Part shown: one piece after another, positions 31,060 to 50,103 of the stretch
Layout: every line of letters begins with the position of its first letter
Position numbering within the stretch: position 1 is the first letter of the stretch
Assembly: GCA_963766885.1 (NCBI GenBank)
Contig: CAVYBO010000001.1
Coordinates: forward strand, 4,352-68,351
Length of the DNA: 64,000 bases
Direction: 5' to 3'
From: an uncultured bacterium
GTDB taxonomy: Bacteria; Patescibacteriota; Minisyncoccia; Phycocordibacterales; CAIRYW01
Program-made: the position numbers and the translations under genes
The notes under the pieces: generated by a model
What the model was told of the DNA's origin: nothing
Database searches by the model: none
The model's input: only the letters and a program-made list of their open reading frames with translations

Positions 31060-31133
31060 GGCGACTATAGTTTAGTGGTAAAACTCCGGTTTGTGGAACC
31101 GGTATCGAGAGTCCGATTCTCTCTAGTCGCCCA
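31060..31133 (+). tRNA. tRNA-His (anticodon GTG) with encoded G-1; its 3' end is the anchor and core sequence of the downstream cassette array
   Basis: G-1 plus gcgacta acceptor, anticodon arm ccggt-ttGTGga-accgg, T-arm gagag-tccgatt-ctctc, 3' tagtcgc-c-ca. Confidence 0.85.
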
Positions 31134-31199
31134 TCAATGATTTTCTCCAATAAAGCCTTATACCGCTTAGACTTTTCAGTTCTAACCTGTTAGAGTTTT
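31134..31199 (+). repeat. Head type a' (copy 1 of 3): native-like flank directly after the tRNA-His 3' end
   Basis: tcaatgattttc...cttagacttttcagttctaacctgttagag; recurs at 41620 and 50035 right after a GTCGCCCA core. Confidence 0.6.
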
Positions 31200-31202
31200 G
31201 GT

Positions 31203-31898: not shown

Positions 31899-31924
31899 TG
31901 GATTGAGGTGTAGGGTAAAATACA

Positions 31925-31991
31925 GGAATATAAATACTTGCATCATTTAACCTCTCAAAAACAGTTCTAACATCCTCTACTACGTCGCCCA
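31925..31991 (+). repeat. Tail repeat L (unit 1)
   Basis: ggaatataaata...cagttctaacatcctctactacgtcgccca. Confidence 0.7.
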
Positions 31992-32042
31992 GAAAATAAA
32001 ATGTTGTGTTATTATTTTATATTATAATTATCAAATAAAATT

Positions 32043-32339
32043 ATGACTGAAAACAAAACAGAAATTGCTGAAGACAAAATTGAATGGCAAGGACAAGTAG
32101 AAAATGTTAATGCTTCAGAATTAAAAGCTGGGGTCATATACATTGATAGGAATAAAGCTAATTTTTCAGGTCCAGAAACAGAACGAAAACTAAAAATTGT
32201 GGAAATGAATTTACTGAGTGAAGAGAATGGTTATAAGTATTATGAGTTAGTTGCTGAGACCGAAGATGGTAAAACTGTTCATCCAAAAATTGGCTTCAAC
32301 GCAGAGACTTCTTTTGATGTAATTAGAAAAACTGATTAA
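32043..32339 (+). CDS. Hypothetical protein; unit 2 cargo
   Basis: 98-aa ORF. Confidence 0.4.
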   Translation: MTENKTEIAEDKIEWQGQVENVNASELKAGVIYIDRNKANFSGPETERKLKIVEMNLLSEENGYKYYELVAETEDGKTVHPKIGFNAETSFDVIRKTD

Positions 32340-32376
32340 CTGGGAAGTAGTGAATTATAGAGTAGGGTAAAAGCTC

Positions 32377-32504
32377 GGAATATAAATACTCGTATCACCC
32401 AATCTCTCAAAAACAGTTCTAACATCCTCTACTACGTCGCCCAGAATTTTTAGCCTTATATTTTAATAATATTTTCGGATGGGTCTAAAGAGAATCGGAC
32501 TTTT
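32377..32504 (+). repeat. Tail L (unit 2) plus spacer plus head R (unit 3)
   Basis: ...ctactacgtcgccca-gaatttttagccttatattttaataatattttcggat-gggtctaaagagaatcggactttt. Confidence 0.7.
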
Positions 32505-32520
32505 GATATACTTTTGTTAT

Positions 32521-33303
32521 ATGAATGAAAATATAAAAAAAGAAAAAACAACTGAAAAAACTGGTGAAGAGATTTTTTTTGAAATCCATAAAGATATTCC
32601 AAGACAAGGTCCTGGAAACGAAGAGTCAACAAAAAAGGCATTTTCTTTGCTTTCAGGTTTACCTTCAGAACCTGCTATTTTAGATGTGGGGTCTGGACCA
32701 GGATTGCAGACAATAGAATTAGCAAGGTTGAGCGGTGGAAATATAACGGCTTTGGATTACCATCAGGAATTTTTGGATGAGTTAAATTTGAACGCATCCA
32801 AAGCTGGTTTAGGAGAACATATTAAGGAAACCAAAGGTTCAATGTTTGAAATGCCATTTGGTGAAAATAATTTTGATGTTATCTGGTCAGAAGGAGCAAT
32901 CTACATTATTGGTTTTGAGAAAGGATTAAAAGAATGGAAGCCTTTTATTAAAGATGGCGGTTATATGGTCGCATCTCATATTTCTTGGCTTAAAAAAGAT
33001 GTGTCTGAAAAACCGAGAGCTTTTTGGGAAAAAAACTATCCAGCAATAGACACAGTTGAGAACAATCTACAAATTGCACAAAGTGTAGGTTATAACAACA
33101 TCGGACACTTCACCTTGCCAGAAGCGGGATGGTGGGACGGCTACTACGGACCTATGGAAGAAAATCTGAAAAGATTAAGAGTAGAACATCAGGGTAATGA
33201 ATCGGCTTTGGCAAAGATTGCGAGCACCCAAGAAGAAATTGACCTGTATAGAAATTTTGCTGATTGCTACGGATATGTTTTTTATGTTTTGCAAAAGAAC
33301 TAG
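32521..33303 (+). CDS. Class I SAM-dependent methyltransferase; unit 3 cargo. Start placed at MNEN; the ORF-track start at 32479 lies inside the repeat
   Basis: Motif I ILDVGSGPG; post-I acidic residue; methyltransferase type 11/12 pattern. Confidence 0.7.
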   Translation: MNENIKKEKTTEKTGEEIFFEIHKDIPRQGPGNEESTKKAFSLLSGLPSEPAILDVGSGPGLQTIELARLSGGNITALDYHQEFLDELNLNASKAGLGEHIKETKGSMFEMPFGENNFDVIWSEGAIYIIGFEKGLKEWKPFIKDGGYMVASHISWLKKDVSEKPRAFWEKNYPAIDTVENNLQIAQSVGYNNIGHFTLPEAGWWDGYYGPMEENLKRLRVEHQGNESALAKIASTQEEIDLYRNFADCYGYVFYVLQKN

Positions 33304-33333
33304 ACCAAAGACTCAAGGTTGGGGTAAAAGCTC

Positions 33334-33462
33334 GGAATATAGATTGTTGCATCACCCAATCTCTCAAAAACAGTTCTAACATCCTCTACTACGTCGCCCA
33401 GCATTTTTTGAGCCCTATTTTTAAGTGTATTTTCTTATGGGTCTAAAGAGAATCGGACTTTT
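33334..33462 (+). repeat. Tail L (unit 3) plus spacer plus head R (unit 4)
   Basis: Spacer identical to the copy at 34461-34522. Confidence 0.7.
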
Positions 33463-33477
33463 GGTATACTTTAGGCT

Positions 33478-33726
33478 ATGAAAAAATATTTAACTCTAAA
33501 CAATGTTTTTCAAGTCTGTTTGGTTTTCTTTACTGTATTAGGATTTTTGCTTACAGGACTAAAAAACCCTAAATGGGGTTTGATTTTTAATCTTATAGCA
33601 GAAGTCTTTTGGGTATACTCTTCTTATAGAGCTTGGAAAGAAGCCAAACAGATAGGAATATTTATTACTACTATAATCATTACAGCCGTATTGCTTTATG
33701 GAGTATTTAATTACTGGTTTCTTTAA
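33478..33726 (+). CDS. Small two-TM protein; unit 4
   Basis: 82-aa ORF. Confidence 0.3.
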   Translation: MKKYLTLNNVFQVCLVFFTVLGFLLTGLKNPKWGLIFNLIAEVFWVYSSYRAWKEAKQIGIFITTIIITAVLLYGVFNYWFL

Positions 33727-33741
33727 AAACCAATTTATTTC

Positions 33742-34332
33742 CTACAAAGAAAACAATAGCTTGGTAGCCTCATATTGTGGTCTTACTTCTTCTCTAATAT
33801 CATCAAAGAATATTTTTCTGTTGAAATCTTTTTCTATTTTAGATAAGACCCATTTTTTGAAAGCATAATAATTTCCATCATCATTTTTACCCCAGTGTTG
33901 CCAGCAAAAGAAAGTATAGAAATCTGATTGAAAATGAGCAATTGAATCTGCTGTTGCAAGAACCTTGCCTTCAAGTGTTGTTGGTAAAATTTCCTTACAG
34001 CTGTGCGGAAGAATAATTTCATAAATTATGAAATCAGTTTCCTTCTGACTAAATTTTGTCTTTTCAAGAAGTTCACGGGCAATTCCAATACTTCTTTTCT
34101 CGTGATTTTCTTCAGAGCGTAGCATAACTGCGTCGGCTATATCGTGAAGCAGAGCACCAGCAACAACTTGTTCCACATCAGCATTCTTTTCTTTAGCAAT
34201 TCTTTCAGCGTTTTTTACCACGACTAAAAGATGATTCGGATAGCCCCAGAAATTCCAATAATCAGCACTTTCAAGATTAGACTTGTAGAGCTTTTCTACT
34301 TCTTGTTTTAGATTGTTTAATCTTGCTGTCAT
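33742..34332 (-). CDS. HD-domain phosphohydrolase; unit 4, antisense to the array
   Basis: H...HD motif LLHDIADAV; 196 aa. Confidence 0.65.
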   Translation of the reverse strand: MTARLNNLKQEVEKLYKSNLESADYWNFWGYPNHLLVVVKNAERIAKEKNADVEQVVAGALLHDIADAVMLRSEENHEKRSIGIARELLEKTKFSQKETDFIIYEIILPHSCKEILPTTLEGKVLATADSIAHFQSDFYTFFCWQHWGKNDDGNYYAFKKWVLSKIEKDFNRKIFFDDIREEVRPQYEATKLLFSL

Positions 34333-34393
34333 CTATTCATTTTATCGTAAATGTTGCTATCAAGCATTATATTCAGAGATGTGATGAAATGTT

Positions 34394-34522
34394 GGAATAT
34401 AGATTGTCGCATCATTTAACCCTTCAAAAACAGTTCTAACATCCTCTACTACGTCGCCCAGCATTTTTTGAGCCCTATTTTTAAGTGTATTTTCTTATGG
34501 GTCTAAAGAGAATCGGACTTTT
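34394..34522 (+). repeat. Tail L (unit 4) plus spacer plus head R (unit 5)
   Basis: ggaatatagattgtcgcatcatttaacccttcaaaaacagttctaacatcctctactacgtcgccca ... gggtctaaagagaatcggactttt. Confidence 0.7.
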
Positions 34523-34610
34523 AAAATAATCCTTTTGTTTATATCTATGTGTAATTGGATTAAACATAACTCAAACCTAGTTGTGATTTTATTGTTATAA
34601 TTCTAACTAT

Positions 34611-36443
34611 ATGAAAAATTATAATCCTGAATTATTAGAAGGAAATAATGGAGAAAGGACCGAAGAAAAACCTGAAGAAATCACTAATAATGAAACCCTA
34701 GAACCACAAGATAATCACTCGGAATTAGTAGATTTCAGTAAAAGATATTCTCGTGCTGGACGCAAAGAAATTGCTGATGAGATTCGGGAATTACGCTTTC
34801 AATATTTCAAAAAAGAAAAGGGAAATCCAGAACGCCAGGAGACTATTGCTGGCCAAGAAAAAAGCATCGAGGCACTTCAAAAAGAAAAGGATTTGATAGA
34901 AGAAGAAATCAGAGCCTTAGAAGATGAGGTAGAGCAGCAAAAGGCTAGCCTGTGGCATAAGATTTCATCTATGTTCCGCAAGAACGAGATAGAGCAAGAA
35001 TTACAGCTTGACCCCAAGAAAAAGAAACTTGAAGATTTAAAAAAAGATATTGAAGGCAGACTTAAAATAATTGGAGAGACGGAGAGCGTAATTTTAGATA
35101 TATCTTCTCTTGATGAAGCTAAGACTAAATTGGCGGAATTTTACAAAGAACAATCGGATTTAAAATCTTCTTTTGAAAGCGAAGAAAAAGAGCGTGATAT
35201 TGAAACCCTGTCAAAAGATAAAGGATATATTTTTCTACACGGCATTCCTACAAAAAATAGGAATATGAACAACACTGCTGAAAACAATCCAGCAATGAAA
35301 ACTAGCGGAATGAGCACTGAAGATAAACTCTCTTTGCTGATGGGATTAGAGCCAACTGTTTCAGCTTCAGTATTAAAAGAGGGTCAACAAGACGCACAAA
35401 CGTATTATACTTTCGGTGTCATTCTTGGTGGAGGTAAAGTATTAAGTGCATATAAAGAAGATTCAGGCACATTGGCTGAGAGTTTGTACAGTCGAAGGTC
35501 AAAATATGATAGAGAAACTAAACAAACAAGCATTCAACCAAATATTACTGCTCATTTAGATGAAGCTGTAAACGCACCTGTAGAATCAAGAAATTGGGGA
35601 AAATACAATGAAATTGTTGTAGAGCAACCAAAAGTGGCTGGATTATATATTAATTTATCCCAACTTAATAATAATTATGACCGAATTGGGATTGGCGAAC
35701 TGAAAAGATATTCTGAGATAATGAATTTGCCAATATACGCCTTAAAAGACGGAGAAATATATCCATTTGATATTGATAGCAAAATTGGTGTGATGGATGA
35801 CGGCAGAAAATATCAAAAAGAAAATGCATTTGAGGCAGAGGGAAATAAACTTTCGCTTGATAATGTAATTGATAGCCGAAGAGAAATTGGTCAGGAAGAA
35901 AAGCTGAAGTTGGCAACTTCAGTTATAGAGAAAAATCCTTTTCAGATTAGCACCGATGGAGAATATGAACTTTATAACGCTTACTCAAGAGGAACTTACG
36001 GTATATATAATTACAGAAAAGGATACGATAATCTTTTAATGGAACAAGAGCTTCATAAGAAAAGAATAGCAGCTGGTATTGAAGAAAGTGACCCAGGAAC
36101 ACCAGAGGATGTTCTCAAAAAAATGGAAGAGCGGTTGGAAGAATTAAAACAAAGAATTGCAGATGCTACCTCCAATGAAGGTAAAAATTTTACCAATAGA
36201 GACCTTAAAAAAGAACTGATTTCTTTATATGGTTTTGCACTTAACGCACAAGAAAACGGAGATGCAAAAACTTTTGATGCAGCCAAAAATATGATTGAAA
36301 AATACGGCTCGTTTGATGAATGTGCGAATTTAATTAAAAAACGAGTAGACGAAAAAGGAGATTTCAAAACATTAGATACAGATGTGCCGATTGAGATAAG
36401 AAAAAAGATGTCAGAATTAGAAGGGGTTAGTTCTGTTACTTAA
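34611..36443 (+). CDS. Large hypothetical protein with N-terminal coiled coil; unit 5 cargo
   Basis: 610-aa ORF, no recognisable catalytic motif. Confidence 0.5.
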   Translation: MKNYNPELLEGNNGERTEEKPEEITNNETLEPQDNHSELVDFSKRYSRAGRKEIADEIRELRFQYFKKEKGNPERQETIAGQEKSIEALQKEKDLIEEEIRALEDEVEQQKASLWHKISSMFRKNEIEQELQLDPKKKKLEDLKKDIEGRLKIIGETESVILDISSLDEAKTKLAEFYKEQSDLKSSFESEEKERDIETLSKDKGYIFLHGIPTKNRNMNNTAENNPAMKTSGMSTEDKLSLLMGLEPTVSASVLKEGQQDAQTYYTFGVILGGGKVLSAYKEDSGTLAESLYSRRSKYDRETKQTSIQPNITAHLDEAVNAPVESRNWGKYNEIVVEQPKVAGLYINLSQLNNNYDRIGIGELKRYSEIMNLPIYALKDGEIYPFDIDSKIGVMDDGRKYQKENAFEAEGNKLSLDNVIDSRREIGQEEKLKLATSVIEKNPFQISTDGEYELYNAYSRGTYGIYNYRKGYDNLLMEQELHKKRIAAGIEESDPGTPEDVLKKMEERLEELKQRIADATSNEGKNFTNRDLKKELISLYGFALNAQENGDAKTFDAAKNMIEKYGSFDECANLIKKRVDEKGDFKTLDTDVPIEIRKKMSELEGVSSVT

Positions 36444-36477
36444 TTTTATGAGATTTGTCCTTTAGGAAAGAATGTCG

Positions 36478-36606
36478 GAATATAGATTGTCGCATCATTT
36501 AATCTCTCAAAAATAGTTCTAACATCCTCTACTACGTCGCCCACGGTTTTTAAGCCTTATAAAATAGGTGTGATTTGGGTGGGGGTCTAAAGAGAATCGG
36601 ACTTTG
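36478..36606 (+). repeat. Tail L (unit 5) plus variant spacer plus head R (unit 6)
   Basis: ...cgtcgccca-cggtttttaagccttataaaataggtgtgatttgggtgg-gggtctaaagagaatcggacttt. Confidence 0.7.
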
Positions 36607-36619
36607 TTATACTAAATGA

Positions 36620-37174
36620 ATGTATGAAGTAGAATCCAAAGTTGAGATTACAGATAAAGAAAAGGAAAATCTTATTACCTTATTTAAGGAGAAAAATTTT
36701 CCATTTAAAGGTACTACTCCACAGAACGATTTTTATACTGAAGCCAGAGAATCACCACACGGTAGTTATGACGTGAAAAGATACAGGGAAGAAGGCGACA
36801 AATTTATATACACAGAAAAAATATGGGAAGTGGTAGATAATAATCCAGTAAGAAAAGAAACTGAACACGAAGTTTCTAAGAATGAATTTGCATCAGCGAT
36901 TGCTCAATTTCCTAATGCCGTAAAGATAAAGAAGCAAAGAGACTGGTTTGCCGCTAATTACCAAAATACTGACATAAGTCTAACTATAGACACTGTAAAA
37001 TTTGACCACTCTCCAAACACGAGATATTTTATTGAAGCAGAAATAGATGTTCAAGACAAGAAAGATGTCAAGAAATTCAAAGACATCATTATCCAATTCC
37101 TCAAAGAATTATTGAACAAATCGGAAATCATTGAAGCTCCAGGGATGTTTACGATGGCGTTTAAAAAACAATAA
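36620..37174 (+). CDS. CYTH-domain (triphosphate tunnel metalloenzyme; CyaB/ThTPase-like) protein; unit 6
   Basis: N-terminal ExExK signature MYEVESK; size and acidic residues consistent with CYTH. Confidence 0.55.
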   Translation: MYEVESKVEITDKEKENLITLFKEKNFPFKGTTPQNDFYTEARESPHGSYDVKRYREEGDKFIYTEKIWEVVDNNPVRKETEHEVSKNEFASAIAQFPNAVKIKKQRDWFAANYQNTDISLTIDTVKFDHSPNTRYFIEAEIDVQDKKDVKKFKDIIIQFLKELLNKSEIIEAPGMFTMAFKKQ

Positions 37175-37177
37175 ATT

Positions 37178-37633
37178 ATGCGAACCATAGAAAGAAAAAT
37201 TGCTACAGCTGTAATATTTTCAGCAGACGGAAAAATATTTCAAGGCCAGAAAGACCCATCAAAAGGAGGTGTATATAGAGATGGTTATTGGCACATTCCT
37301 GGAGGTGGAATAGAAGAAGGAGAAACGGTAGAACAAGCTTTAATAAGAGAAATAAAAGAAGAAACTGGTATTGATGTATCAAATATTAAAGCTATCTTGA
37401 TTGACGATAAAGGTGAAGGGGAATCAGAAAGAACTTTGGCAAACGGAGAAAAAGTAATTGCCAAAATGAAATTCTACGTATACAAAATTGTCTTGCCAAC
37501 AAACACGGAAGATACAGAAATTCACCTTAACGATGATTTGGTTAAATATAGATGGACTGACCCAAAAGAACTTAAAAACATAAAGCTAACTCCTCCTTCT
37601 GTAGAGTTGTTTACAAAGATGGGGTACCTTTAA
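37178..37633 (+). CDS. NUDIX hydrolase; unit 6, 4 nt after the CYTH gene
   Basis: Nudix box GGGIEEGETVEQALIREIKEETGI. Confidence 0.7.
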   Translation: MRTIERKIATAVIFSADGKIFQGQKDPSKGGVYRDGYWHIPGGGIEEGETVEQALIREIKEETGIDVSNIKAILIDDKGEGESERTLANGEKVIAKMKFYVYKIVLPTNTEDTEIHLNDDLVKYRWTDPKELKNIKLTPPSVELFTKMGYL

Positions 37634-37650
37634 TGGTTGTGCAAAATGTC

Positions 37651-37762
37651 GGAATATAAATTGTCGCATCATTCAAACTCTCAAAAATAGTCCTAACATC
37701 CTCTACTACGTCGCCCACTGTTATATTAAGCTAACGTTAGTGGGCAGTAATATTTCTTTTTC
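37651..37762 (+). repeat. Tail L (unit 6) followed by head type H (hairpin gcccact-N19-agtgggc)
   Basis: Same L+H junction recurs at 47884-48080. Confidence 0.65.
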
Positions 37763-37945
37763 TGACTTTGGTATCTGCTGTTAGCCTGATTCATAACCAG
37801 CAGATATTGACTAAATAAAATATTTCAGTAAGCTATACATACAAATGAAAACAACATTTTCAATTGCAAATAACCATCATACAGCTCTTACTTCAAGAGC
37901 TGGTGTTTGCCGTTGTTAATTTCTCTCTAAGAATTTCACAAAAGT

Positions 37946-37974
37946 AAAAACGAGCTCTTGTAAGAGCTCGTTTT
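37946..37974. terminator. Palindromic hairpin plus T-run upstream of hisG
   Basis: aaaaacgagctcttgtaagagctcgtttt. Confidence 0.5.
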
Positions 37975-38021
37975 GCTATGTAGCAAAATCAGTACATTCA
38001 ACAACAAATGAAAGGATAAGT

Positions 38022-38921
38022 ATGAAACAGATACCAATAAGCGTAGTAGTACCAGACGGTTCAATGCAACCAGTTGTAATGGACCTTCTTGCAAAAGCGG
38101 GTATGCCAGTGAAAGTGAGTAAACGGAGCAAAGAGGGAAAAATCGAAGGTGGTTGGATAGACAAGTTTTTCTTCCAACGGCCACAGGAAATTCCTCTCTA
38201 TCTCAACGCTGGCAATTTCGATTTAGCAATTGTCGGCGAAGATTGGATTGCCAACTGGGGATTCAAGTTTCCGGTTCTGCTTAAACTTCCGATTGGACAA
38301 AGTGGCAACAGAAAACCTGTGAAAATTGTTCTGGCAGTAAGTCAGGACAGCGGTCTCACACTGCTTCAGAATTTTCCACAGGGCTCTGAAGTTGCAACTG
38401 AATATGTCGAGTTGGCGAAGAGGTATTTCGCCAACAGATGTAGGTCAGATATTCGCGTCATGCCATCATATGGCAACACGGAACAAAAAATCCGATTCGG
38501 AGCAACAGCAATCATTGATGTAACTGAGACGGGAGAATCGCTTCGGGAAAACAATCTTGTAATTATTGACGAGATTATGGAATCAAACACCGTTCTGGTG
38601 GCCAATCCTGCGTCTCTCAACAATGAATACATTAAGCCAAACATGGATCTCTTCACCGAACTTGTCAAAGGAGCCTTTGAGGCTTCCGGATATGTTCTGG
38701 TGGTGTCGAATGTGCCCGAAAAAGTGCTCAAGAAGGTAAGTCGCATCCTTGGCGGCTTAAAAGGTCCTTCATGCTCGCCTCTTATCGGAAAAGGAAAAGG
38801 TCGTTTTGCACTGCAGTCCGTTATTCCAAGGGAGAAAGAACAGGAGGTTGTTCGCAACCTACGGCAAATTGGAGTGACAGACATCTTTGTGATCCGAGAC
38901 ATTCCTCTCATCATGAGTTAA
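38022..38921 (+). CDS. hisG: ATP phosphoribosyltransferase, long form (HisG) with C-terminal regulatory domain; unit 7 cargo, GC-rich
   Basis: DLAIVGEDWI and ATAIIDVTETGESLRENNL segments align with HisG signature regions; 299 aa equals long-form length. Confidence 0.6.
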   Translation: MKQIPISVVVPDGSMQPVVMDLLAKAGMPVKVSKRSKEGKIEGGWIDKFFFQRPQEIPLYLNAGNFDLAIVGEDWIANWGFKFPVLLKLPIGQSGNRKPVKIVLAVSQDSGLTLLQNFPQGSEVATEYVELAKRYFANRCRSDIRVMPSYGNTEQKIRFGATAIIDVTETGESLRENNLVIIDEIMESNTVLVANPASLNNEYIKPNMDLFTELVKGAFEASGYVLVVSNVPEKVLKKVSRILGGLKGPSCSPLIGKGKGRFALQSVIPREKEQEVVRNLRQIGVTDIFVIRDIPLIMS

Positions 38922-38949
38922 TTGTTTATTTGTGCTATGACACACAAAC

Positions 38950-39139
38950 CCACCTCGTTAAAACGAAGCGGGTATTTTTTTATTTAAAACTTTTTATCAA
39001 CTTCAACTTCTCTCTAACACCTGCCATATACTCCTGATCAGAAAGTATTGTTATAAAAGGGTAACCGTAGTCGCCCAGCATTTTTAAAGCCTTATTTTTA
39101 AGTATATTTTCGGAATGGGTCTAGAGAGAATCGGACTTT
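38950..39139 (+). repeat. Tail type B (unit 7: terminator hairpin, tatttttttatttaaaac..., ...ggtaaccgtagtcgccca) plus spacer plus head R variant (gggtctagagagaatcggacttt)
   Basis: Second copy of tail B at 49905-50034. Confidence 0.65.
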
Positions 39140-39143
39140 ATTT

Positions 39144-39518
39144 CTAATGGGAATGTCCTTCCTCTCTATTCAACTCATGCACCTGATAATGCACAAGTTC
39201 TTGCAAAGCGACATATCCGAAACGAATAATTACAGCTCCGATACCTACAGTCATCCATGAACATAAAATATTCAATAGAAATGAATAAGGAATATAAAAT
39301 CTGAAAGGTGGCAGCCAATCGTGCAGAGGATTGAAAATAATCACAAAAAATAAACTAATCCAGAAAGTAAAACAAAAACCGCAGTTCAATGCTTTCCTGA
39401 AAAACCATGGAAGGGAATGTGTAAACTGTTTTAGTTTGGGTAAATCGTGTAAAAGATTTCTCCAGAGCACTGCAATTCCTGCTATCGTTAAAATTGAAAA
39501 AATATAATCTGTGAACAT
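39144..39518 (-). CDS. Hypothetical integral membrane protein; unit 8, antisense
   Basis: 124 aa, about 4 TM. Confidence 0.4.
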   Translation of the reverse strand: MFTDYIFSILTIAGIAVLWRNLLHDLPKLKQFTHSLPWFFRKALNCGFCFTFWISLFFVIIFNPLHDWLPPFRFYIPYSFLLNILCSWMTVGIGAVIIRFGYVALQELVHYQVHELNREEGHSH

Positions 39519-39612
39519 TTAATTTTGCTTTTAATAATAAATTTTTAGATTCGTATAAAAATTGCGTTCGGAATTTCTTCCAAGAACGCAGTGTATTCGT
39601 GAGGTGTGATAT

Positions 39613-40263
39613 TTACACCAAACCGATTGCTTCGCCAGCTTCAGGTGAGATGCCCATGTTGAAAGGCATCCGCAAGCCGATGAGCAACATTGACTCCGAG
39701 AGTAGGTGTGACAGGAACGCTTGCGATGCTTCACCAATTGCGGTGTCATGCAAACGAACCATGATTCCACCGATGCCTTCCGCCGTCGCAGGCGCCACAT
39801 CACATCCGCAGTCGCAGTTGTGGTTGAGCACCATGCCAGTGTTGGCGTGGATGACGGATTGGATGTGCATGAACAACCGAAACACTTTGCCGATGGCGTG
39901 CAGGTGGGTATCAACCACAAACCATGGAAACGGCAGCTTGTCCTTCTGGCTGATGATGGTCGCATGCTGCTGCGGGTTCTCACGGGTGCCGAGATAACAG
40001 AGCGAATACCAGAGCGTGGAAGGAATCCGAGCTCCGAATTGTTCCGACAACTCGGCAATTGCCCTGACCATCGCTTGCTTCAGCTTGAAATCGGGGTCAT
40101 CGTGCCTGAAGGCGAAGTGATTCGGGTCAAAGGAGTTTGTGAACCCCAGTCCGACATAGTTGAGCATCACTTCGGCGACTTCGTGCATGTCCACGGTTTC
40201 GCCTTGAATGGTGACCCTGATGCCTTCGGCCGCGAGCATGAAGCCGCGAGCACGCAGAAGCAA
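39613..40263 (-). CDS. Hypothetical protein, GC-rich; unit 8, antisense
   Basis: 216-aa ORF; overlapping + strand ORFs judged antisense artefacts. Confidence 0.4.
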   Translation of the reverse strand: MLLRARGFMLAAEGIRVTIQGETVDMHEVAEVMLNYVGLGFTNSFDPNHFAFRHDDPDFKLKQAMVRAIAELSEQFGARIPSTLWYSLCYLGTRENPQQHATIISQKDKLPFPWFVVDTHLHAIGKVFRLFMHIQSVIHANTGMVLNHNCDCGCDVAPATAEGIGGIMVRLHDTAIGEASQAFLSHLLSESMLLIGLRMPFNMGISPEAGEAIGLV

Positions 40264-40541
40264 ATCGGGGTCAATGGTTTTCTCAAGACTCGGCCATGGT
40301 TCGGGAAGCCGAACGGGTTGACGCAGGTCAACGGGACGTAATCGCTGGACGGTAGTTTGGATGTAGTGGTAGTGACGGTAGTGTAGCAGTCATTGGATTG
40401 GTTGTTTGTGTTTTTGCCTCAAGATTCAAAGACCTTGTTTTGTAAATGCAAACGATTTGCAAATACCTTGCAATACTATACACAAACAAAAATGTTAATG
40501 CAAATGGTTTGCGTTAAGAATGAGTATCGGTTACAAACGCG

Positions 40542-40670
40542 GGAATGTAGATTGTTGCATCATTTAACCTCTCAAAAACAGTTCTAACATCCTCTACTAC
40601 GTCGCCCAGCATTTTTAAAGCCTTATTTTTAAGTATATTTTCGGATAGGTCTAAAGAGAATCGGACTTTT
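40542..40670 (+). repeat. Tail L (unit 8) plus spacer plus head R (unit 9)
   Basis: gggaatgtagattgttgcatcatttaacctctcaaaaacagttctaacatcctctactacgtcgccca...aggtctaaagagaatcggactttt. Confidence 0.7.
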
Positions 40671-40729
40671 CGTGAATTTCAACTAAAAAAGTTTCAACAT
40701 CGTATCAAACACCCAGTTCATTATAGAAA

Positions 40730-41074
40730 TTGCAAAAGCAATCTATATATGTAATATGGTGGTCAGATATGATTTATTATCCAACACCAGACAAGGCCGA
40801 GAGAACCGCTCTCCAGGTTGGGGATGTTATTTCAGTAACACTGAAAGGTGATGTGTCGGTATTAAGAGATAAGAACCCTCTAAAACTCGTCGAAGACGAG
40901 GAAAGTTGTGCTGGCTACTCGTTTCTCAGTACCCTACCTGCTAAAACGAAAATCACACACGATTTTGCTTTGTTTCTAGCAAGGCAGGTGGCTTCAATTG
41001 CCAATCTCGACGTTTCTGATGACATCCAGTTCACTGACGAAGGTTACTTTGCCTTCAATGTGATTCAAAGGTGA
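40730..41074 (+). CDS. Hypothetical protein; unit 9
   Basis: 114-aa ORF. Confidence 0.35.
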   Translation: MQKQSIYVIWWSDMIYYPTPDKAERTALQVGDVISVTLKGDVSVLRDKNPLKLVEDEESCAGYSFLSTLPAKTKITHDFALFLARQVASIANLDVSDDIQFTDEGYFAFNVIQR

Positions 41075-41181
41075 GTTTACGACTCACTATTTTTTATATA
41101 TGGATTTCACAATCTTCGTTCCAACATTGTCCCAAACCTCTCGTTTGACAGAAAGAATTTTTACGTATAGAAATAGGTTAA

Positions 41182-41484
41182 ATGCGCATTGTTTATTTCA
41201 CTTACGTGGTATCCATGGGAAGCCACGGTGGAGGTTATCGTCAGGGAGGAAGCAAACTGAAACACGGTTTGTTGAATTTGAAGAAAGGGGAATTGAGCAC
41301 ATTCTCACACTGCCAACCTCAAATTGAGCAGGAGTTGCAGAGACTGAACATTCAGTTCAGTGATATCGTCTCTCCGGATAGCAAACAGTTCAACGGTTCT
41401 CTGTGTTACCAATACATCACCGATGAAGCTGAAATTCGAGAACTTCAAGAGGACACCTCCATTGAAGTCCGTATTGGCTTCTGA
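41182..41484 (+). CDS. Hypothetical protein; unit 9
   Basis: 100-aa ORF. Confidence 0.3.
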   Translation: MRIVYFTYVVSMGSHGGGYRQGGSKLKHGLLNLKKGELSTFSHCQPQIEQELQRLNIQFSDIVSPDSKQFNGSLCYQYITDEAEIRELQEDTSIEVRIGF

Positions 41485-41552
41485 CTATCGTCACAATTTG
41501 TGGCGAATTTTTTTTATTTAAATCTTACTCAACTTTAATTGTATAAAAGCTC

Positions 41553-41690
41553 GGAATATAGATTGTTGCATCATTTAACCTCTCAAAAATAGTTCTAACA
41601 TCCTCTACTACGTCGCCCATCAGTGGATTTTTCTAAAATATCCTTACTGGGCTTAGACTTTTCAGTTCTAACCAACAGGTTGTTTTTAAT
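41553..41690 (+). repeat. Tail L (unit 9) followed by head type a' (copy 2 of 3)
   Basis: ...cgtcgccca-tcagtggatttttctaaaatatccttactgggcttagacttttcagttctaacc. Confidence 0.65.
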
Positions 41691-41767
41691 TATGGGGGAA
41701 ATGTCAGATACTATTTACTTTAAAATAAGTTATACTTTTTATTATTACGAGCTTAAAAAATAATCGT

Positions 41768-42355
41768 ATGAACAATTTTGAAGGTGCTTCCACACCACCT
41801 GAAGATGAAGAAATTACCGAGAGTGAAAAAATAGAAGCAACTGATGGTTCTGAAAAACCTTTAACGTATAAAGAGAAAACAGAAAGGTTTGAAAAATTGA
41901 TGGAGGAATTAAGGGCAAGTGTTAATGGTTATGAAGAAAAATTTGAGGGTGTGTTAAATTCTATACCTTCGCCCGAAGAGTTGAGCGAACGATATACATC
42001 CCAAGTAAACAGCCCAACTGATGCACTTTCGGGAGCCAAGCTAACTGCCCAGCTTATGTTGCTAAAAGTTGATATGTTGTATCAATACAAAGAATTTGCA
42101 CGCCGTAAGAGTAATCTAATTGATAACAGCAGTAGGAGTAAGCAGGACGCTTTTACTTTTTTCAATGTTCTACCATCCGAAGGTTCAATATCAAAAATTT
42201 TAGAAGGGATGCCACACTCTATTAAAAATGAGGGTATACTGGGCAACAATCTCAATGCCTTGATAGCAGATGAAGCATCAATTTTTTCTAAATTAAAAGA
42301 ATTGAAAGATTTAGACATCTCACCTCGCATTGCTGATATGGCTTATGAATCATAG
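41768..42355 (+). CDS. Hypothetical acidic/coiled-coil protein; unit 10
   Basis: 195-aa ORF. Confidence 0.4.
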   Translation: MNNFEGASTPPEDEEITESEKIEATDGSEKPLTYKEKTERFEKLMEELRASVNGYEEKFEGVLNSIPSPEELSERYTSQVNSPTDALSGAKLTAQLMLLKVDMLYQYKEFARRKSNLIDNSSRSKQDAFTFFNVLPSEGSISKILEGMPHSIKNEGILGNNLNALIADEASIFSKLKELKDLDISPRIADMAYES

Positions 42356-42381
42356 TTAAAAATAAATCAGAATTTACTACA

Positions 42382-43050
42382 ATGAGTATGGAAATGCCGA
42401 CAACAGAAGAATCAAGCGAAGAAGAGGGCGTAATAGACTCTAATCCAGAAAATCAACCAGAAGAAACACCCGAAGTAATTGAACCAGAAGATGAAGCCAA
42501 GAAATCTGAAGTGGTAGAATCAAATCTTGATTCTAAAAAAGAAAGAGTAAGAGAAGAAGAGTTGAAGGAGGGTATCATCACTGTTAAAACTAACTTATCA
42601 AGAATTTCTGAATTATTAGGAAACCTTGCTGGTGAATTTCGTCGCAGAGATAGTGATAGATACACCAAAATAGCAAACTCAACAGACTTTGCTAGGTGCG
42701 GAGAGCAAATAACAGAATTTCTCCATACTCTTTCTGCTGACCAAGTTGATGAATCTGTGGGCAAACTAAAAAACCTTGGCACTATTGCCGATTCATTTAG
42801 TAAAACAGTTTTAAGTATGAATACAGATAATTACCGAGGCACTATAAAGGAGGATGCCGCAAGTCTTTTTAGACTTAAAAGTATTTTTGAGCAAATGCCA
42901 GAATTTATTGGTCGCCTTAAAGATTTAAGTTTCAAGTCAAATCAAAAAGAATTTACTTCTCTGTTTGATTCCTTTAGGAAAATAGGTGAAGGAACTGAAC
43001 GGGCAAAAAATTTCCTAACTAGACTTGGAAATGCAGTTAAAAGAAGATGA
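42382..43050 (+). CDS. Hypothetical acidic protein; unit 10
   Basis: 222-aa ORF. Confidence 0.4.
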   Translation: MSMEMPTTEESSEEEGVIDSNPENQPEETPEVIEPEDEAKKSEVVESNLDSKKERVREEELKEGIITVKTNLSRISELLGNLAGEFRRRDSDRYTKIANSTDFARCGEQITEFLHTLSADQVDESVGKLKNLGTIADSFSKTVLSMNTDNYRGTIKEDAASLFRLKSIFEQMPEFIGRLKDLSFKSNQKEFTSLFDSFRKIGEGTERAKNFLTRLGNAVKRR

Positions 43051-43103
43051 GTCATATTTGGGATTGCATCATATAGTGAGTTGAGAGGTGGGGTAAAACG
43101 CAG

Positions 43104-43183
43104 GAATATAGATTGTCGCATCATTCCTCCTCTCAAAAACAGTTCTAACATCCTCTACTACGTCGCCCCCAAGAGAGAATTAG
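43104..43183 (+). repeat. Tail L (unit 10, core variant GTCGCCCC) plus degenerate head R remnant (aagagagaattag)
   Basis: caggaatatagattgtcgcatcattcctcctctcaaaaacagttctaacatcctctactacgtcgccccc. Confidence 0.6.
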
Positions 43184-43251
43184 TTGAGATAAACACTCCT
43201 TCTAGGAAACTATTTCGCTTTTTTATTTTTACCTTATAATGTAATGTAAAT

Positions 43252-43698
43252 ATGAATAAGTTTTCAATCACGTCTATAATTTTTTCAGTGGTATTTTTCC
43301 TGACTATGGCTTTTCTTACAACTTACGCGATTGCTGCGTCTATCGTGAGTTCCCATATCCATGTGATCAATAGAAATACTCTTAGTAAACCTTTTTCTGG
43401 TATAGTCGAAGGAACAGTCATTGCTACATCTACAACAAGTATAACAATTGATAAAAATATATATCTTGGTAGAACTGCTTCTTCTACAGAAATGACTTTT
43501 GTTTTGATGCCAAATGTCAGGGTACACGAGTATCACGGTGAAAGTGCATCCACAGGTATATCTATAGGATCATCTGTTTCTCTTGTTTTGGAACATCTGG
43601 GTAAAGATGAGGGGAAAGTTTTTGAGATACGGGTTTTGTGGAACGGAGAACATAGAAATGTTTTTACTCATACTGGCAAGAAAGCGAATACTATATGA
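43252..43698 (+). CDS. Hypothetical secreted/membrane-anchored protein; unit 11
   Basis: 148 aa with N-terminal TM; stop overlaps the start of the next gene. Confidence 0.4.
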   Translation: MNKFSITSIIFSVVFFLTMAFLTTYAIAASIVSSHIHVINRNTLSKPFSGIVEGTVIATSTTSITIDKNIYLGRTASSTEMTFVLMPNVRVHEYHGESASTGISIGSSVSLVLEHLGKDEGKVFEIRVLWNGEHRNVFTHTGKKANTI

Positions 43699-46600
43699 GA
43701 TATATAAAGAGTTTAAAATCGATAGTAGTATTTTATTTTCTTTTTATACTACTTGTTTCTTTTGGGTGTATTTTACAACCTTCGACAGCTCATGCTGATA
43801 CGGGACTGGTTGCAGAATGGACTATGGATGATGGGTCAGGAAATATTGCATCTGATTCGTCTGGAAACGGAAATGATCTTGATATAAACGGCAGCGCCAC
43901 ATGGGTGGCAGGTAAAATTCTTGGCGCACTTTCTTTTGATGGCAGTAGTAATTACGCGCACGACGATTCAACATTTAATACTACGCCATCTTCTACCATG
44001 AGCTTGTGTGGCTGGATAAAGACCTCGTCTCCTACAGCTCAGACTATTCTCAGTTTCGGGCGTAATCCAGGTAATTTTACCAACGAGGGTATTTTTAGTG
44101 TTTTGGCCAGCGGGTCAATTCAATTTTGGGACTACAGTAATGGCGGTGGTGGTTTAGGTTTTTCGAGCAGCGCTTCTGGCAGTACGGGCATAGTCGATGA
44201 TGGAAACTGGCATTCGGTATGTTTTGTCAAAAATAATACCGCAGGCACCTATTATATTGATGGAGTAGAAAGTGGTATCACGACTGCAGCAACGAACGTA
44301 GCTTATGACAATACCGACTGGACATTAGGAAAAGATTATCGCGACAACGATAACTATTTCGATGGTCTCATGGACGATATGCGCGTCTACGACATCGCAT
44401 TATCATCCAGTCAGGTCTACTTGCTTTATGGAATAGAGGGCTATTGGAAGTTTGATGAGGGGTCAGGTACGGTAGCCAATGATTCTTCAGGAAATAATAA
44501 TACAGGCACAATTGTAGGTGATCCTACGTGGACAACAGGAAAAGTAGGATATGCTCTTAATTTTGGAAATAATCAATATGTGAGCATTGCTGGTACGCCA
44601 ATTTCTACAGCGATTGCTTCTAGTAGTCAGATGACAGCGACCGCATGGGTATATGCAAATTCTGCCACACCGTGGGGTACCATCATAAAAGATTGGCCAG
44701 ATTATTCGGGCAATGACCAGTTCCATCTGGGCTTTGAAGGAACTACGACTAAAATTTCTGCATATATTGAACAAAGCAATGGCACTATTATTGGTCCTGT
44801 GGAAAGCACGAGCACCTTACCGCTCAATAGTTGGCACCTCGTTGCTATGACTGCAAACGGAAGTTCAACTCTTCTTTATATAGACGGAACGGTGGTTGCT
44901 TCGAGTACGTATGATGGAACCTTGCACCAAGGTGGAAATTATATCGGCATTGGTGCAAAGCTCGATGACACAGGTTTACCAAATGCAGATAACCCAGGTT
45001 ATTTTGATGGAAAGATAGATGATGTTCATCTGTATGATAAAGGACTTTTGCCTGATGATATTCTCACTCTTATGGAAGCTCCACCTGCTCAAGTATCGAA
45101 CCTTCAGGCAACAGGAACATATGCGGGCGGTTTCTCTCTGACGTGGGATCCAAACCCTGTGGGCGATAATGTCACGAATTATGTAATCCAATATTCTACA
45201 GATGGGGGTAATTCTTGGACTCCCGTCGATACTAATTCTAACAGCACAAGCTATGAGTTGAGCGGTATTGGTCCCGGGGACTATCTTTTTCAAGTCAAAG
45301 CCGTCAATACTGTAGGACAGGGTCTACCGTCTACTCAAGTGGAGATCAATTCACCAGCCATTACTTACACGCTGGGTAATGATTGTCTTGCTTTGGAACA
45401 TATTACGACTAATCCGGGCGATGCATATGGGCACTACATTATGTCCTCGAACATTGACTGCTCAGTTGTTCCGAATTTTTCACCGATCAATTTTTCTGTC
45501 TCAGGTTTTGGCGGCACATTTGATGGTGCGGGTCATACGATCACCAATCTCACCATCAGCACCTCAACTATTCAGAATGTTGGATTGTTTAGCCAAATTC
45601 AAAATAGCGGTACTGTAGAAAATCTAACACTTACGAATACCAATGTCACGAGCGGCGAAGCATATTCTGGAATTTTGGCTGGCTATAACAATGGTACTCT
45701 CCAAAATATCTCGGTCTCGGGCACCTCAACTGGTGTGTATGCTGTCGGAGGTCTTGTGGGACAAAACGATGCGCTTGGGGTTATTTCTACCTCAAGTGCT
45801 GATGTGTACGTCATTGCTGATAATAATAGTGGAAATGGAAATGTGGAAGAAGTTGGAGGCTTTGCTGGAGAGAGCGAGGGATCGATCAATGGTTCCCATT
45901 CATTAGGGACAGTTACCAATGCGACGGGTTCTGAAGATTTTTATTATGTGGGAGGCTTTGCTGGCTTTCAGGGTGGTGACTTCACCGATGACTATGCTAC
46001 AGGGCCGATTATCGTAAACGCTGACTCTTCAGGAGAGTCGGATTATATCGGAGGTTTTGTGGGGTATGCCGGCAGTGCCGGATCCATAGATCATTCTTAT
46101 GCTACTGGAAATATCACTGATCCAGATGATTATGTTTATGAGATCGGTGGTTTTGTGGGGGAGTCGAGGGCTCCTCTTAGTGATGATTATGCGACGGGTA
46201 ATATATACGACGATAATGATAGTAACGTCGGCGATTCCTTCTATCTCGGTGGCTTTGCCGGTGGGAGCGATGCGGGTGCGATAAGTAATTGTTATGAGAC
46301 AGGCTCCATCACCATAGCTTTTCCTCAAGATTTTTATTATGTGGGAGGCTTTGCAGGATATACTGAGAATGACGAAATCAGCCAGTCCTACAGCACTGGC
46401 AATGCAGAAGGCAACGAAGCTGTCGCTGGTTTTTCAGGATATAATGAGGCCCTACTTTCTCAGGTCTATTCAAGTGGTAATGTCGTTATGTTTGGAAGTG
46501 GTCCGACATATGCTGGTGGTCTTGTGGCCGACAATGAGGGTGATATAAACGATGCTTTTTCCACAGGCAATATAAGTCTAGATAGCGGAGTGACGGGTAG

Positions 46601-47801: not shown

Positions 47802-47883
47802 ACTTTTTAAAATAATGTAATTACTTTCCGGATTACCTGGTTACTGGAGACGAGAAAGGGATTAAACAACACTTGCTATAGTT

Positions 47884-48080: not shown

Positions 48081-48167
48081 TAACAATTTTCTATAGAAAT
48101 CTTTAATAATTTTTTTTGTTGATTCTCAATTTACCTGGTGGTAGTATGGCCGAGGTAAATTTGAACT

Positions 48168-49514: not shown

Positions 49515-49618
49515 GTAATTGCAAACTCGGTTTGCTGCGCAGATTAAACGCTGCGCAATTTTTATTATTTGAATATTCCTTGTAATTTTAAATGTAAAAT
49601 GTATAGTTTTGTCTGAAT

Positions 49619-50100: not shown

Positions 50101-50103
50101 GGT

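Follow-up and report, generated by a model that had tools for sequence, protein, structure and literature searches.

We analysed a 64,000-nucleotide stretch of DNA, called the window below, from an uncultured bacterium of the Candidate Phyla Radiation (CPR, or Patescibacteria; contig CAVYBO010000001.1, positions 4,352 to 68,351). Two units in this window, one carrying a hisG gene and the other a thrC-like and a thiS-like gene, have the same ends around unrelated cargo. Each lies precisely inserted at a copy of the 3' end of the tRNA-His gene, in a cassette array that starts behind that gene, and we refer to them as B units after their common tail (tail B). In our preferred reading, which we hold with a confidence only a little above even, the B units are non-autonomous integrative cassettes: they would have kept both attP arms of an element that targeted tRNA-His and whose attachment (att) core lay in the 3' end of its integrase gene, and they would be moved in trans.

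Two units with common ends and unrelated cargo

The hisG unit (37718-39077) and the thrC/thiS unit (48036-50034) are built alike: a 45-nt head is followed by the regulatory leader of the cargo, the cargo gene or genes, an intrinsic terminator, a tail of ~100 nt and an 8-bp core. Their features are the following (ORF, open reading frame).

37718..37762, + strand: head B (type H3) of the hisG cassette, CTGTTATATTAAGCTAACGTTAGTGGGCAGTAATATTTCTTTTTC; repeat family D13
37845..37974, + strand: hisG leader, with a 24-codon ORF MKTTFSIANNHHTALTSRAGVCRC and then a terminator-like hairpin at 37947-37974
38022..38921, + strand: long-form ATP phosphoribosyltransferase HisG, 299 aa; Pfam HisG and HisG_C, TIGR00070, TIGR03455
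38948..38973, no strand assigned: terminator-like hairpin between hisG and the minus-strand tail ORF, scoring on both strands
38983..39081, - strand: tail B open frame of the hisG unit, MLGDYGYPFITILSDQEYMAGVREKLKLIKSFK; spans the core 39070-39077, with its ATG within the head of the next cassette
48036..48080, + strand: head B (H3) of the thrC/thiS cassette; repeat family D13
48168..49514, + strand: ThrC-like pyridoxal-phosphate enzyme, 448 aa; PALP 1.3e-44, TIGR00260
49619..49885, + strand: ThiS/MoaD/SAMP1-like sulfur-carrier protein with a GG end, 88 aa; Pfam
49940..50035, - strand: tail B open frame of the thrC/thiS unit, MGDYGYPFITILSDQEYMAGVREKLKLIAGFK; spans the core 50027-50034, its ATG being formed by the core and the first base of the next head

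The two head copies (37699-37766 and 48017-48084, family D13) are 97% identical across 68 nt, and the two tail copies (38966-39080 and 49923-50037, family D7) are 84% identical across 115 nt. A 22-mer of the head, TTAAGCTAACGTTAGTGGGCAG, has two exact copies in the window where none is expected; the same holds for the final 25 nt of the tail, ATAAAAGGGTAACCGTAGTCGCCCA, which are identical in both units. In both, an intrinsic terminator and then TATTTTTTTATTTAAAAC precede the tail, and in both (2/2) head B is paired with tail B. An earlier, sequence-only reading of this DNA had placed the hisG unit at 37718-39077 and had seen in the two units a second class of vehicle, with one head and one tail for different cargo. 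Both points are borne out by these repeats, each present twice and distinct from the commoner tail-A units described below. The hairpin that it saw in the head does exist as an inverted repeat (GCCCACT ... AGTGGGC), but this repeat is only 7 bp long and its left arm overlaps the junction core. Head B also contains a 10-bp palindrome, CTAACGTTAG, and the arm AGTGGGC is inverted relative to the core.

HisG has the domain content of the long form (PF01634, 2e-34; PF08029, 1.6e-12) and scores 131 bits against TIGR00070 (cutoff 75.75) and 57 bits against TIGR03455 (cutoff 40). The ThrC-like protein is barely above the TIGR00260 thrC cutoff (174.4 versus 167.1 bits). The ThiS-like protein (PF02597, 2.9e-12) ends in ...AAAGG, and its gene has its own promoter-like site (49580-49607), with terminators at 49536-49557 and 49911-49930. 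Together, the ThrC-like and ThiS-like proteins could have a putative role in sulfur transfer, for example the synthesis of homocysteine or cysteine from a thiocarboxylated carrier.

The B units are precise insertions in an array behind tRNA-His

The array that holds the B units, and the junctions that they split, are as follows.

31061..31133, + strand: tRNA-His (GTG), left anchor of the array; from ARAGORN, Rfam tRNA (64.7 bits) and the sequence
31134..50719, + strand: array of 13 cassettes, 19.6 kb, each closing with a copy of the core
37647..37717, + strand: tail A and core of the CYTH/NUDIX cassette, left half of the hisG-unit junction; repeat family D3
39078..39139, + strand: H2-type head of the cassette after the hisG unit, right half of the split junction; repeat family D4
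47880..48035, + strand: tail A of the LamG-protein cassette and core 48028-48035, left half of the thrC-unit junction
50035..50110, + strand: H1-type head of the last cassette (AAA_18 kinase); repeat family D6; the same type follows the real tRNA-His at 31134-31211

The final 8 nt of tRNA-His, GTCGCCCA, are the recombination core that bounds both B units. This core has 13 exact copies in the window against 0.69 expected, every one on the + strand and all within 31126-50719 (starts at 31126, which is the tRNA's own, 31984, 32436, 33393, 34453, 36536, 37710, 39070, 40601, 41612, 48028, 50027 and 50712). At a 14th junction (43162-43169) a complete tail A precedes a mutated core, GTCGCCCc, which divides an apparent 6.4-kb unit in two. 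The units of the array measure 452-4866 bp and hold one to a few genes each, mostly on the + strand, with 3 ORFs on the - strand. According to Pfam their cargo comprises RibD_C, a SAM methyltransferase, HD, CYTH plus NUDIX, HisG, a 1368-aa LamG/GLUG/fn3 protein, ThrC-like (PALP) plus ThiS, an AAA_18 kinase and several unknowns. Tail A (~65-70 nt, ...GGAATATAgATTGTcGCATCATTTAACCTCTCAAAAACAGTTCTAACATCCTCTACTAC) closes 11 of the 13 units ahead of the core and tail B closes the other two; the cores are followed by a few head types, H1 (found also after the true tRNA-His), H2 and H3. The H2 head carries a degenerate inverted copy of the T-arm and acceptor of tRNA-His (GGGTCTAGAGAGAATCGGAC). To the left of the array stand an MPG glycosylase gene and tRNA-His; to its right follow a gene for an uncharacterized protein of 118 aa and a DoxX gene.

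When the hisG unit is removed together with one core, the joined flanks (37630-37717 and 39078-39145) match the intact junction 40521-40676 almost perfectly across the breakpoint, in the order tail A, core, H2. Likewise, removal of the thrC/thiS unit and one core restores a tail A-core-H1 junction that is near-identical to the intact junction 41549-41697. Since an ordinary junction is restored in each case, both units are precise site-specific insertions, and the view that one scaffold had delivered different cargo is supported; moreover, the tail-B class carries yet other cargo in L008 and L045 (L- and P-numbers denote the loci and proteins that we compared). The B units share with their targets only the core, which is 8 nt long, or 10/11 nt when TAnGTCGCCCA is counted. 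Such a pattern is typical of site-specific recombination at the core and not of homologous exchange. Insertion at a tRNA 3' end, with direct repeats of that end at both borders as seen here, is what tRNA-targeting elements produce.

The array might instead have been shuffled by homologous recombination, the junction repeats and tRNA-His serving as portable homology by which RecA loops in cassettes acquired by transformation, without a dedicated recombinase. The junction repeats are indeed conserved over 70-150 nt and are 60-89% identical among the copies of the array, conservation of tail A extends through CPR, PilM/PilN-like proteins are encoded in the window, and no recombinase is present in cis. 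Yet the B units share just 8-10 bp per side with their targets, which is too short for RecA exchange, and they sit exactly at the core. RecA shuffling also leaves unexplained why the breakpoint is constantly at the tRNA 3' end and why tail ends follow each genome's own tRNA-His (see below). We therefore regard it as improbable.

Some further features of the array deserve mention. An insert of ~85 nt (47936-48020, ATCACAAGGGCACTTCTTGCTTACGGCAGTAGCTGATACCCGAGAGCGG...) breaks tail A directly before the core that received the thrC unit. The cassette at 43695-47801 encodes the 1368-aa protein, of surface type (2x Laminin_G_3, fn3, 4x GLUG) and unusually large as cargo for this array. There are two RibD_C/DHFR-like reductases in the window, one in the first cassette after tRNA-His (31203-31898) and one outside the array, in a thyA-dcd-dut neighbourhood (58845-59342).

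The tails evolve like coding sequence

Both kinds of tail show a protein-like, coding-type constraint on the minus strand. The two copies of tail B differ at 17 nt; read on the minus strand, 12 codons change synonymously and 3 non-synonymously. The frame encodes M(L)GDYGYPFITILSDQEYMAGVREKLKLI(K/A)(S/G)FK. In tail A, variability is 3-periodic, with a mean entropy of 0.54/0.41/0.91 at minus-strand codon positions 1/2/3. The tail A frame is open in 35 of 36 copies, the other five frames being stop-rich, and encodes (M/L/V)GDVVEDVRTVFERLxDxxIYIP..., then a few variable codons. A search across 30 copies found no consensus RNA fold for tail A. The first codons of the tail frames, xTG GGC GAC, are the reverse complement of the tRNA-derived core, and the few codons that come next are the antisense of diverged T-loop and acceptor sequence.

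An open frame with synonymous-biased divergence would also fit independent minus-strand micro-genes for addiction, regulatory or RiPP-like (ribosomally synthesized and post-translationally modified) peptides, their overlap with the junctions being secondary. In most copies an ATG, GTG or TTG is usable as a start, H2 heads put AAGG 8 nt upstream of the ATG, and gene callers sometimes predict these ORFs. In other copies, though, the start codon is missing; the conserved part begins exactly at the tRNA-derived core, then come a few random-looking codons; a terminator hairpin lies directly upstream in other CPR genomes; and the relatives of tail B are C-terminal ends of longer frames. We regard micro-genes as an improbable explanation of the tails. 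A consensus scan gave no promoter for the micro-ORF in the H2 head. RiPP-like precursors were rejected also because the variable C-termini resemble read-through into cargo DNA. We also set aside a retroelement that would use tRNA-His as its primer and TGGGCGAC, on the minus strand, as primer-binding site: there is no reverse transcriptase and no supporting feature.

Relatives of tail B suggest a possible origin from an integrase gene

A profile of the tail B peptide, run against 1.84e9 representative proteins, retrieved 37 clusters at E < 1e-3, nearly all of 30-120 aa. The representatives carry the motif (W/L/M)G-x6-8-(L/I)T(I/V)L(S/C/Y)DxEYMAGV(R/K)EK(L/I)xLI at their C-terminal end. Three of the 37 (P0251, P0281 and P0282) extend upstream in frame into a common region, ...RKIVxAVKSPIVxAL.... 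In L045, an open frame of 195 aa matches PHROG 95, annotated 'integrase' (phrog_95; profile positions 457-566 of 651, E = 8.7e-5), and decayed integrase remnants adjoin the tails in L044, L045 and L084. We infer from the three decayed fusions and the one modest profile hit that the tail corresponds to the C-terminal codons of an integrase. The length of the profile and a coiled-coil-like segment suggest that this enzyme was a large serine recombinase. Peptide ends characteristic of the tails, by which such a protein may be recognised, are ...LTILSDxEYMAGVxEK... or ...GDVVEDVRTVFERL....

A larger collection, of 5.8e9 proteins, was searched with tail A only. The idea that tail A is the N-terminus of a long protein was rejected, as the search gave only 5 short proteins (32-60 aa). 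Several other searches were negative: tblastn with the integrase remnants found nothing further in any fetched locus, remnant P0281 had no match in phages, the exact head B 24-mer was absent from the viral contigs searched, and the back-translated N-terminal part of tail B had no metagenome match.

In two unrelated metagenome contigs (L045, 6459-8489; L084, 5729-7426), an AbiEii-type gene pair comes immediately after the decayed integrase remnant with the tail B motif at its end. Remnant and AbiEii genes may together be the decayed left end of an autonomous element that carried a defence or addiction module.

Related arrays occur behind tRNA-His in other CPR genomes

GTDB species genomes were scanned with a pattern made of the end of tail A and the core. 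Besides chance matches in GC-rich genomes (GC, guanine plus cytosine), tail A with core was found at 24 CPR loci, in Saccharibacteria, Nomura-, Kaiser- and Paceibacteria and 'Parcubacteria', several of them with 2-4 tails. In all nine of these 24 loci whose 8 kb include the tRNA, tRNA-His lies 0.8-2.5 kb upstream of tail A in the same orientation. The genes between tRNA-His and the tails vary by genome (AIR-synthase-like, radical SAM, DUF4419, Band 7, APH kinase); a PurD-like gene among the cargo of CPR arrays was recognised by eye from sequence only.

The back-translated tail B motif gave 17 true family ORFs in 16 metagenome contigs of 37-57% GC. Considering these 16 loci and L045, tRNA-His(GTG) stands convergent to the tail B ORF at 0.3-6.6 kb in six with long enough context (L045, L059, L065, L066, L076 and L077), the same geometry as in the window. 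The tails of L059 and L066 end in a 7-8 nt copy of the 3' end of their own genome's tRNA-His (CGCCCCA, GCACCCC), and the tail of L077 in an imperfect copy of ~28 nt, from T-loop to 3' end. Tails A and B share arrays, on the same strand, in L008 (Nomurabacteria), in L034 and L037 (Saccharibacteria) and in L052. The cargo of B-tailed units differs between genomes; elsewhere it includes an AIR-synthase-like gene (L008) and GDH/ApbE/oxidoreductase genes (L045). In head B the short motif TTAAKCKAAC begins 9-10 nt beyond the core, and in L066 and L077 it stands at that distance behind tRNA-His; with these three independent cases only, it may belong to the other att arm.

Cargo that recurs beside tails shares 89-96% protein identity between genomes whose housekeeping proteins (MscL and others) share 56-64%, and DNA homology between such genomes extends from the cargo across tail and core. 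Given this difference in identity, cargo-plus-tail segments have been exchanged horizontally between distant CPR lineages. A wider reading, which we put forward tentatively and at somewhat less than an even chance, is that integron-like gene capture operates across CPR lineages: recombinase-less single-gene cassettes, each with one of at least two kinds of attP arm that come from an integrase 3' end (tail A, tail B), would be stacked at tRNA-His by an integrase acting in trans, exchanged between classes as far apart as Saccharibacteria and Paceibacteria, and would supply hisG, thrC/thiS, purM-like, purD-like, kinase and NUDIX genes.

A second kind of repeat is found near these arrays. In L005, L009, L010, L012, L015, L017, L018, L019, L028 and L037, a terminator palindrome stands behind tRNA-His and behind many of the tail A cores, and next to it comes an element of ~170 nt. 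This element opens with the 3' end of tRNA-His in reverse complement (TGGGCGGCTA...GGAATCGAA) and closes with the same end in direct orientation (...CCCGGTAGCCGCCCA). Its sequence follows each genome's own tRNA-His (examples are L028 oriented 3950-4125 and 5434-5610), and the H2 heads of the window contain a degenerate piece of it. The ends of the element could pair as a mimic of acceptor and T-stem, and it may be either an RNA gene or a unit resembling miniature inverted-repeat transposable elements. Elements downstream of tRNA-His in other CPR loci had no Rfam match.

Cassettes without a recombinase in cis

No recombinase domain was found in the non-nested ORFs of at least 80 aa searched in the window. 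Around the 24 CPR arrays, none was found among the 25 most frequent of the 91 Pfam families in 96 ORFs of at least 180 aa, and a crude motif screen for recombinases at the 24 tail-A CPR loci (~170 kb) gave none. No element-encoded tyrosine or large serine integrase was found in these ORFs of the window, and none was seen around the 24 related arrays. The array likewise has no replication module (primase or helicase); a PIF1-like helicase at 59388-61106 lies 8.7 kb outside. The absence of recombination genes from the units is observed, and what would tie them to an autonomous element is only that relatives of tail B are fused to integrase remnants.

We propose the following mechanism. In the ancestral autonomous element, the last ~30 integrase codons would have crossed the attP core, which duplicates the 3' end of tRNA-His and would have been translated there from the other strand. 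When such an element integrates at tRNA-His or at a core copy already present, the integrase body would be separated from its C-terminal codons, leaving the body beside the proximal core and the C-terminal codons beside the distal core; the tail would thus be the distal and the head the proximal attP arm. Repeated integrations would stack units outward behind tRNA-His. The cassettes would be derivatives that lack the integrase body and retain tail, core and head, and, with the body lost and both arms kept, they would depend on an integrase provided in trans for excision as well as for reinsertion. The B units would have inserted at core copies within a tail A array that had already grown by accretion. 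This mechanism would explain the exact duplications of the core, its single orientation and the pairing of head B with tail B. It would also account for the protein-like constraint on the tails, which would be imposed in autonomous relatives, and for a core that follows each genome's own tRNA-His in loci with a recognisable copy. The cassettes may still be mobile today. The tRNA-His anchor, the logic of the array, the coding nature of the tails and the link to an integrase gene were all absent from the sequence-only reading.

Nothing mobile would remain if the array were instead a fossil, in which elements once complete at tRNA-His lost their own integrases by deletion and the heads and tails are dead att scars. 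Signs of decay are indeed present: the integrase remnants that adjoin tails in L044, L045 and L084, the mutated core at 43162-43169, the tail A with the ~85-nt insert, and tail ORFs without start codons. We nevertheless judge a fossil array unlikely. The units are minimal and tidy (head, leader, gene, terminator, tail), and independent deletions rarely repeat an identical minimal architecture. A 97% identical head is found on two unrelated cargos, near-identical cargo plus tail is found in distant lineages, an intact integrase was not seen in the 24 tail-A CPR loci (~170 kb), and tblastn with the remnants gave nothing more in any fetched locus.

Several observations weigh against mobilization in trans by an integrase of this kind. 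The link to the integrase consists of three decayed remnants and one modest PHROG match of 22 bits, and Pfam and PDB searches with the remnants gave no match. The collections searched yielded no complete integrase with a tail A or tail B peptide at its end. No fusion of any kind was seen for tail A, no long frame entering it in the 24 loci. The tail B motif had no family member in viral contigs and the tail B consensus peptide none in plasmids or phages. The identity between unit and target is only 8-10 bp, and recombinase binding sites could not be defined. In L045, L065 and L076 the tail copy of the genome's own tRNA-His end was not found. Finally, no excised circle, empty-site variant or strain polymorphism was retrieved. 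Look-ups of strain variants with the exact HisG (and its identical entry P0001) and with the kinase gave no record; those with the ThrC-like protein (P0126) and the NUDIX protein led only to short Logan contigs of the sample itself, whose ends are assembly breaks induced by repeats and not circles. A 1982-bp Logan contig that matches a unit stops, too, where repeats break assemblies.

Comparison with known mobile systems

In Prochlorococcus, tycheposons and tRNA-linked islands insert at tRNA 3' ends, with repeats of part of the tRNA flanking each insert (bioRxiv 10.1101/2020.12.28.424599). Successive integrations there displace older inserts outward, and the cargo is metabolic and niche-adaptive, in a streamlined genome without the usual gene-transfer machinery (bioRxiv 10.1101/2020.12.28.424599). 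The CPR arrays resemble these islands in their site-specific insertion at a tRNA 3' end, their partial-tRNA repeats and their outward accretion of metabolic cargo. However, tycheposons are defined by a tyrosine or large serine recombinase of their own and usually have a replication module; the CPR units have neither, and hence are not tycheposons. Moreover, the CPR units are far smaller (0.45-4.9 kb, mostly one or two genes), use only tRNA-His, have as distal arm what we propose to be the 3' end of an integrase gene, and are hosted by Patescibacteria.

The cis-mobilizable elements related to the integrative and conjugative elements of Streptococcus thermophilus are flanked by att sites and lack a recombinase, occur in tandem at one chromosomal site and can be mobilized by the integrase of a relative. 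They are few and large, lie at the 3' end of a protein gene (fda), and rely on tyrosine integrases and conjugation, whereas here 13 small cassettes stand behind a tRNA gene in a pattern that is kept across several CPR lineages.

With integron arrays, and with clusters of attC sites lacking integron integrases (CALINs), the array shares long series of short, mostly co-oriented single-gene units, a shared junction site, accessory cargo and the absence of a recombinase from the units. If it were an integron-like system, a tyrosine recombinase of the IntI type, encoded elsewhere in the genome, would capture cassettes by acting on junctions that fold as single-stranded attC-like hairpins (core, palindrome, inverted core). 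Short, mostly co-oriented units of one or two genes would fit, and so would the core followed by a palindrome and an inverted core in many CPR loci, a small version of which is present in head B. But there is no IntI, attI or Pc next to the array, and the junctions are not attC sites: they lack the R''/L''/L'/R' palindrome and a conserved fold, tail A having no consensus fold, and the R''/R' consensus RYYYAAC...GTTRRRY is not matched. The two halves of the pair AGCTAAC/GTTAGTG in head B are adjacent and mismatch the consensus, and the unit boundaries fall after GTCGCCCA. The anchor is a tRNA gene, the tails evolve like coding sequence, and the junction site would derive from a tRNA 3' end and integrase-coding sequence. 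Integron cassettes are mostly promoterless; in the B units, leaders and terminators accompany the cargo, together with an internal promoter-like site. With neither IntI nor attC found, the array is not placed in the integron family, and such a system is in our view very improbable here.

An att core inside the integrase ORF is known from the Myxococcus phage Mx8 (intP/attP, tRNA-Asp gene) and from Sulfolobus SSV1. When these elements enter a tRNA gene, their integrase gene is cut or receives a new 3' end, and a piece of its coding sequence stays behind at the distal junction; both are complete viruses with tyrosine integrases. By comparison, only the fragment and the arms remain here, on cargo, and the putative enzyme looks more like a large serine recombinase. 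The pdif modules of Acinetobacter plasmids are gene modules between short sites whose recombinase is encoded elsewhere, the sites being XerC/D dif-like 28-mers in alternating orientation, whereas the CPR array uses direct repeats of a tRNA end and is chromosomal. Passenger elements derived from IS200/IS605 (PATEs), which move by single-strand transposition, were considered as well, since insertion 3' of a fixed short sequence would suit them. However, a terminal hairpin is missing from tail A, and a search for TnpA was negative; the hairpin of tail B is the cargo terminator, ~95 nt from the end, and not the subterminal hairpin of such elements.

All together, the B units and their array resemble integrons and CALINs in function, and in mechanism they would be closer to the accretion of tRNA-linked elements combined with an attP site inside an integrase gene. 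No account of cassette arrays at tRNA-His in CPR turned up in full-text searches of the literature, a negative result that is not proof of novelty.

The cargo comes most likely from other CPR bacteria

The GC content of the window is 38.6%, that of the hisG unit 41.2% and that of the thrC/thiS unit 48.2%, with 45% for the hisG coding sequence, 52% for the thrC-like and 51% for the thiS-like one. The earlier estimate of about 50-55% GC for both units in a genome of ~33% was thus too extreme, as only the second unit reaches 50%, and does so in its coding sequences. Genes flanking the array in the window are typical of Patescibacteria (PolA, RuvA, Fpg, PilM/N, sortases, DUF5666/DUF5667, NusG, L11, L19, ThyA and TdeIII restriction-modification). 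Apart from the genome's own entry, the best matches of HisG are 57-71% identical and come from Patescibacteria wherever a source is named; those of the ThrC-like protein are 60-71% identical and, where named, come from Pacebacteria, Saccharibacteria, Parcubacteria and Minisyncoccia. The proposal of a GC-richer donor can therefore be retained in part: with a GC content above that of the host a horizontal origin is plausible, but the best matches, which are Patescibacteria where named, indicate neither another donor phylum nor a donor outside the host lineage. In addition, the part of tail B that resembles a tRNA end, CCGTAGTCGCCCA, is a better fit to the canonical T-stem of tRNA-His, CCCGGTAGTCGCCC (found in L076, L077 and L019), than to the resident CTCTCTAGTCGCCC, and together with the GC content this makes a horizontal origin of the B units plausible. 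The donors were most likely other, possibly GC-richer, CPR bacteria and not members of another phylum.

An isolated hisG had also seemed odd in this genome. The closest hisG (P0002, 71% identity) stands in a housekeeping setting with rpoC, dnaG, rpoD, a uvrD-like gene and hisS, on a contig of 34% GC. The leader DNA of the window's hisG is ~90% identical to that of L001 (9293-9430), whereas the proteins are only 71% identical. The shared leader consists of a 24-codon ORF, MK..FSIANNHHTALTSRAGVC.C, and a terminator-like hairpin; it matches no Rfam family and may be a His-responsive attenuator, with only two His codons. Because this closest homologue, beside hisS, has a housekeeping context and the same leader, the orphan long-form hisG is better seen as a recurrent CPR gene than as an oddity. 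The contexts of the hisG homologues (L001-L004) and of the thrC homologues (L041, L042) contain no cores and no tails.

Other features of the window

Outside the array, a complete-looking type II restriction-modification pair at 19465-21822 consists of an N6_N4 DNA methylase (524 aa) and a TdeIII-family endonuclease (5.7e-95). Both genes come just behind tRNA-Arg(TCT) and the repeat that flanks it, where the GC content of the window is lowest (27-34%). That repeat is structured, GACCTTTTGAG...(hairpin)...CCAAAAGGTGTACTG-(hairpin), and has 3 copies in the window, after tRNA-Arg(GCG) (10575-10730), after tRNA-Arg(TCT) (18539-18660) and between rplK and the next gene (58226-58320), without an Rfam match. 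Both copies beside tRNA-Arg genes are preceded by an inverted piece of the T-arm of that tRNA, and the first closes with a tRNA-Arg-like 3' end. The two tRNA-Arg genes (10502-10596 and 18466-18560) share, besides the tRNA body, the downstream flank AAAATTAAGCGAAGCT(T/G)TATTTT (81% identity across 95 nt in all), which hints at a duplication or at another tRNA-linked insertion system. At the left end of the window (1-1500) GC rises up to 53-59%; ORFs overlap there on both strands (66-599), a 231-aa ORF (785-1480) has no Pfam match, and no Rfam family was found.

Significance for CPR genomes

CPR bacteria make up a large share of bacterial diversity and have genomes of ~1 Mb with a patchy content of metabolic genes. 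To our knowledge, the literature describes no general route by which they exchange genes. The interest of the arrays described here lies in their apparent breadth across CPR and in their bearing on how minimal genomes acquire metabolic genes. Arrays of cassettes at tRNA-His may be a common way in which CPR bacteria trade such genes. If so, a conserved docking site behind tRNA-His would explain the patchy metabolism of CPR through portable one-gene cassettes that have standard ends and may be near-identical even in distant classes, and tail A, tail B and the core would provide a sequence handle for mining the mobile gene pool of CPR in metagenomes. A compact integrase and att pair would follow, perhaps usable for genetics in organisms for which few tools exist. 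'Orphan' genes such as hisG would then be circulating accessory genes that travel with their own regulatory leaders.

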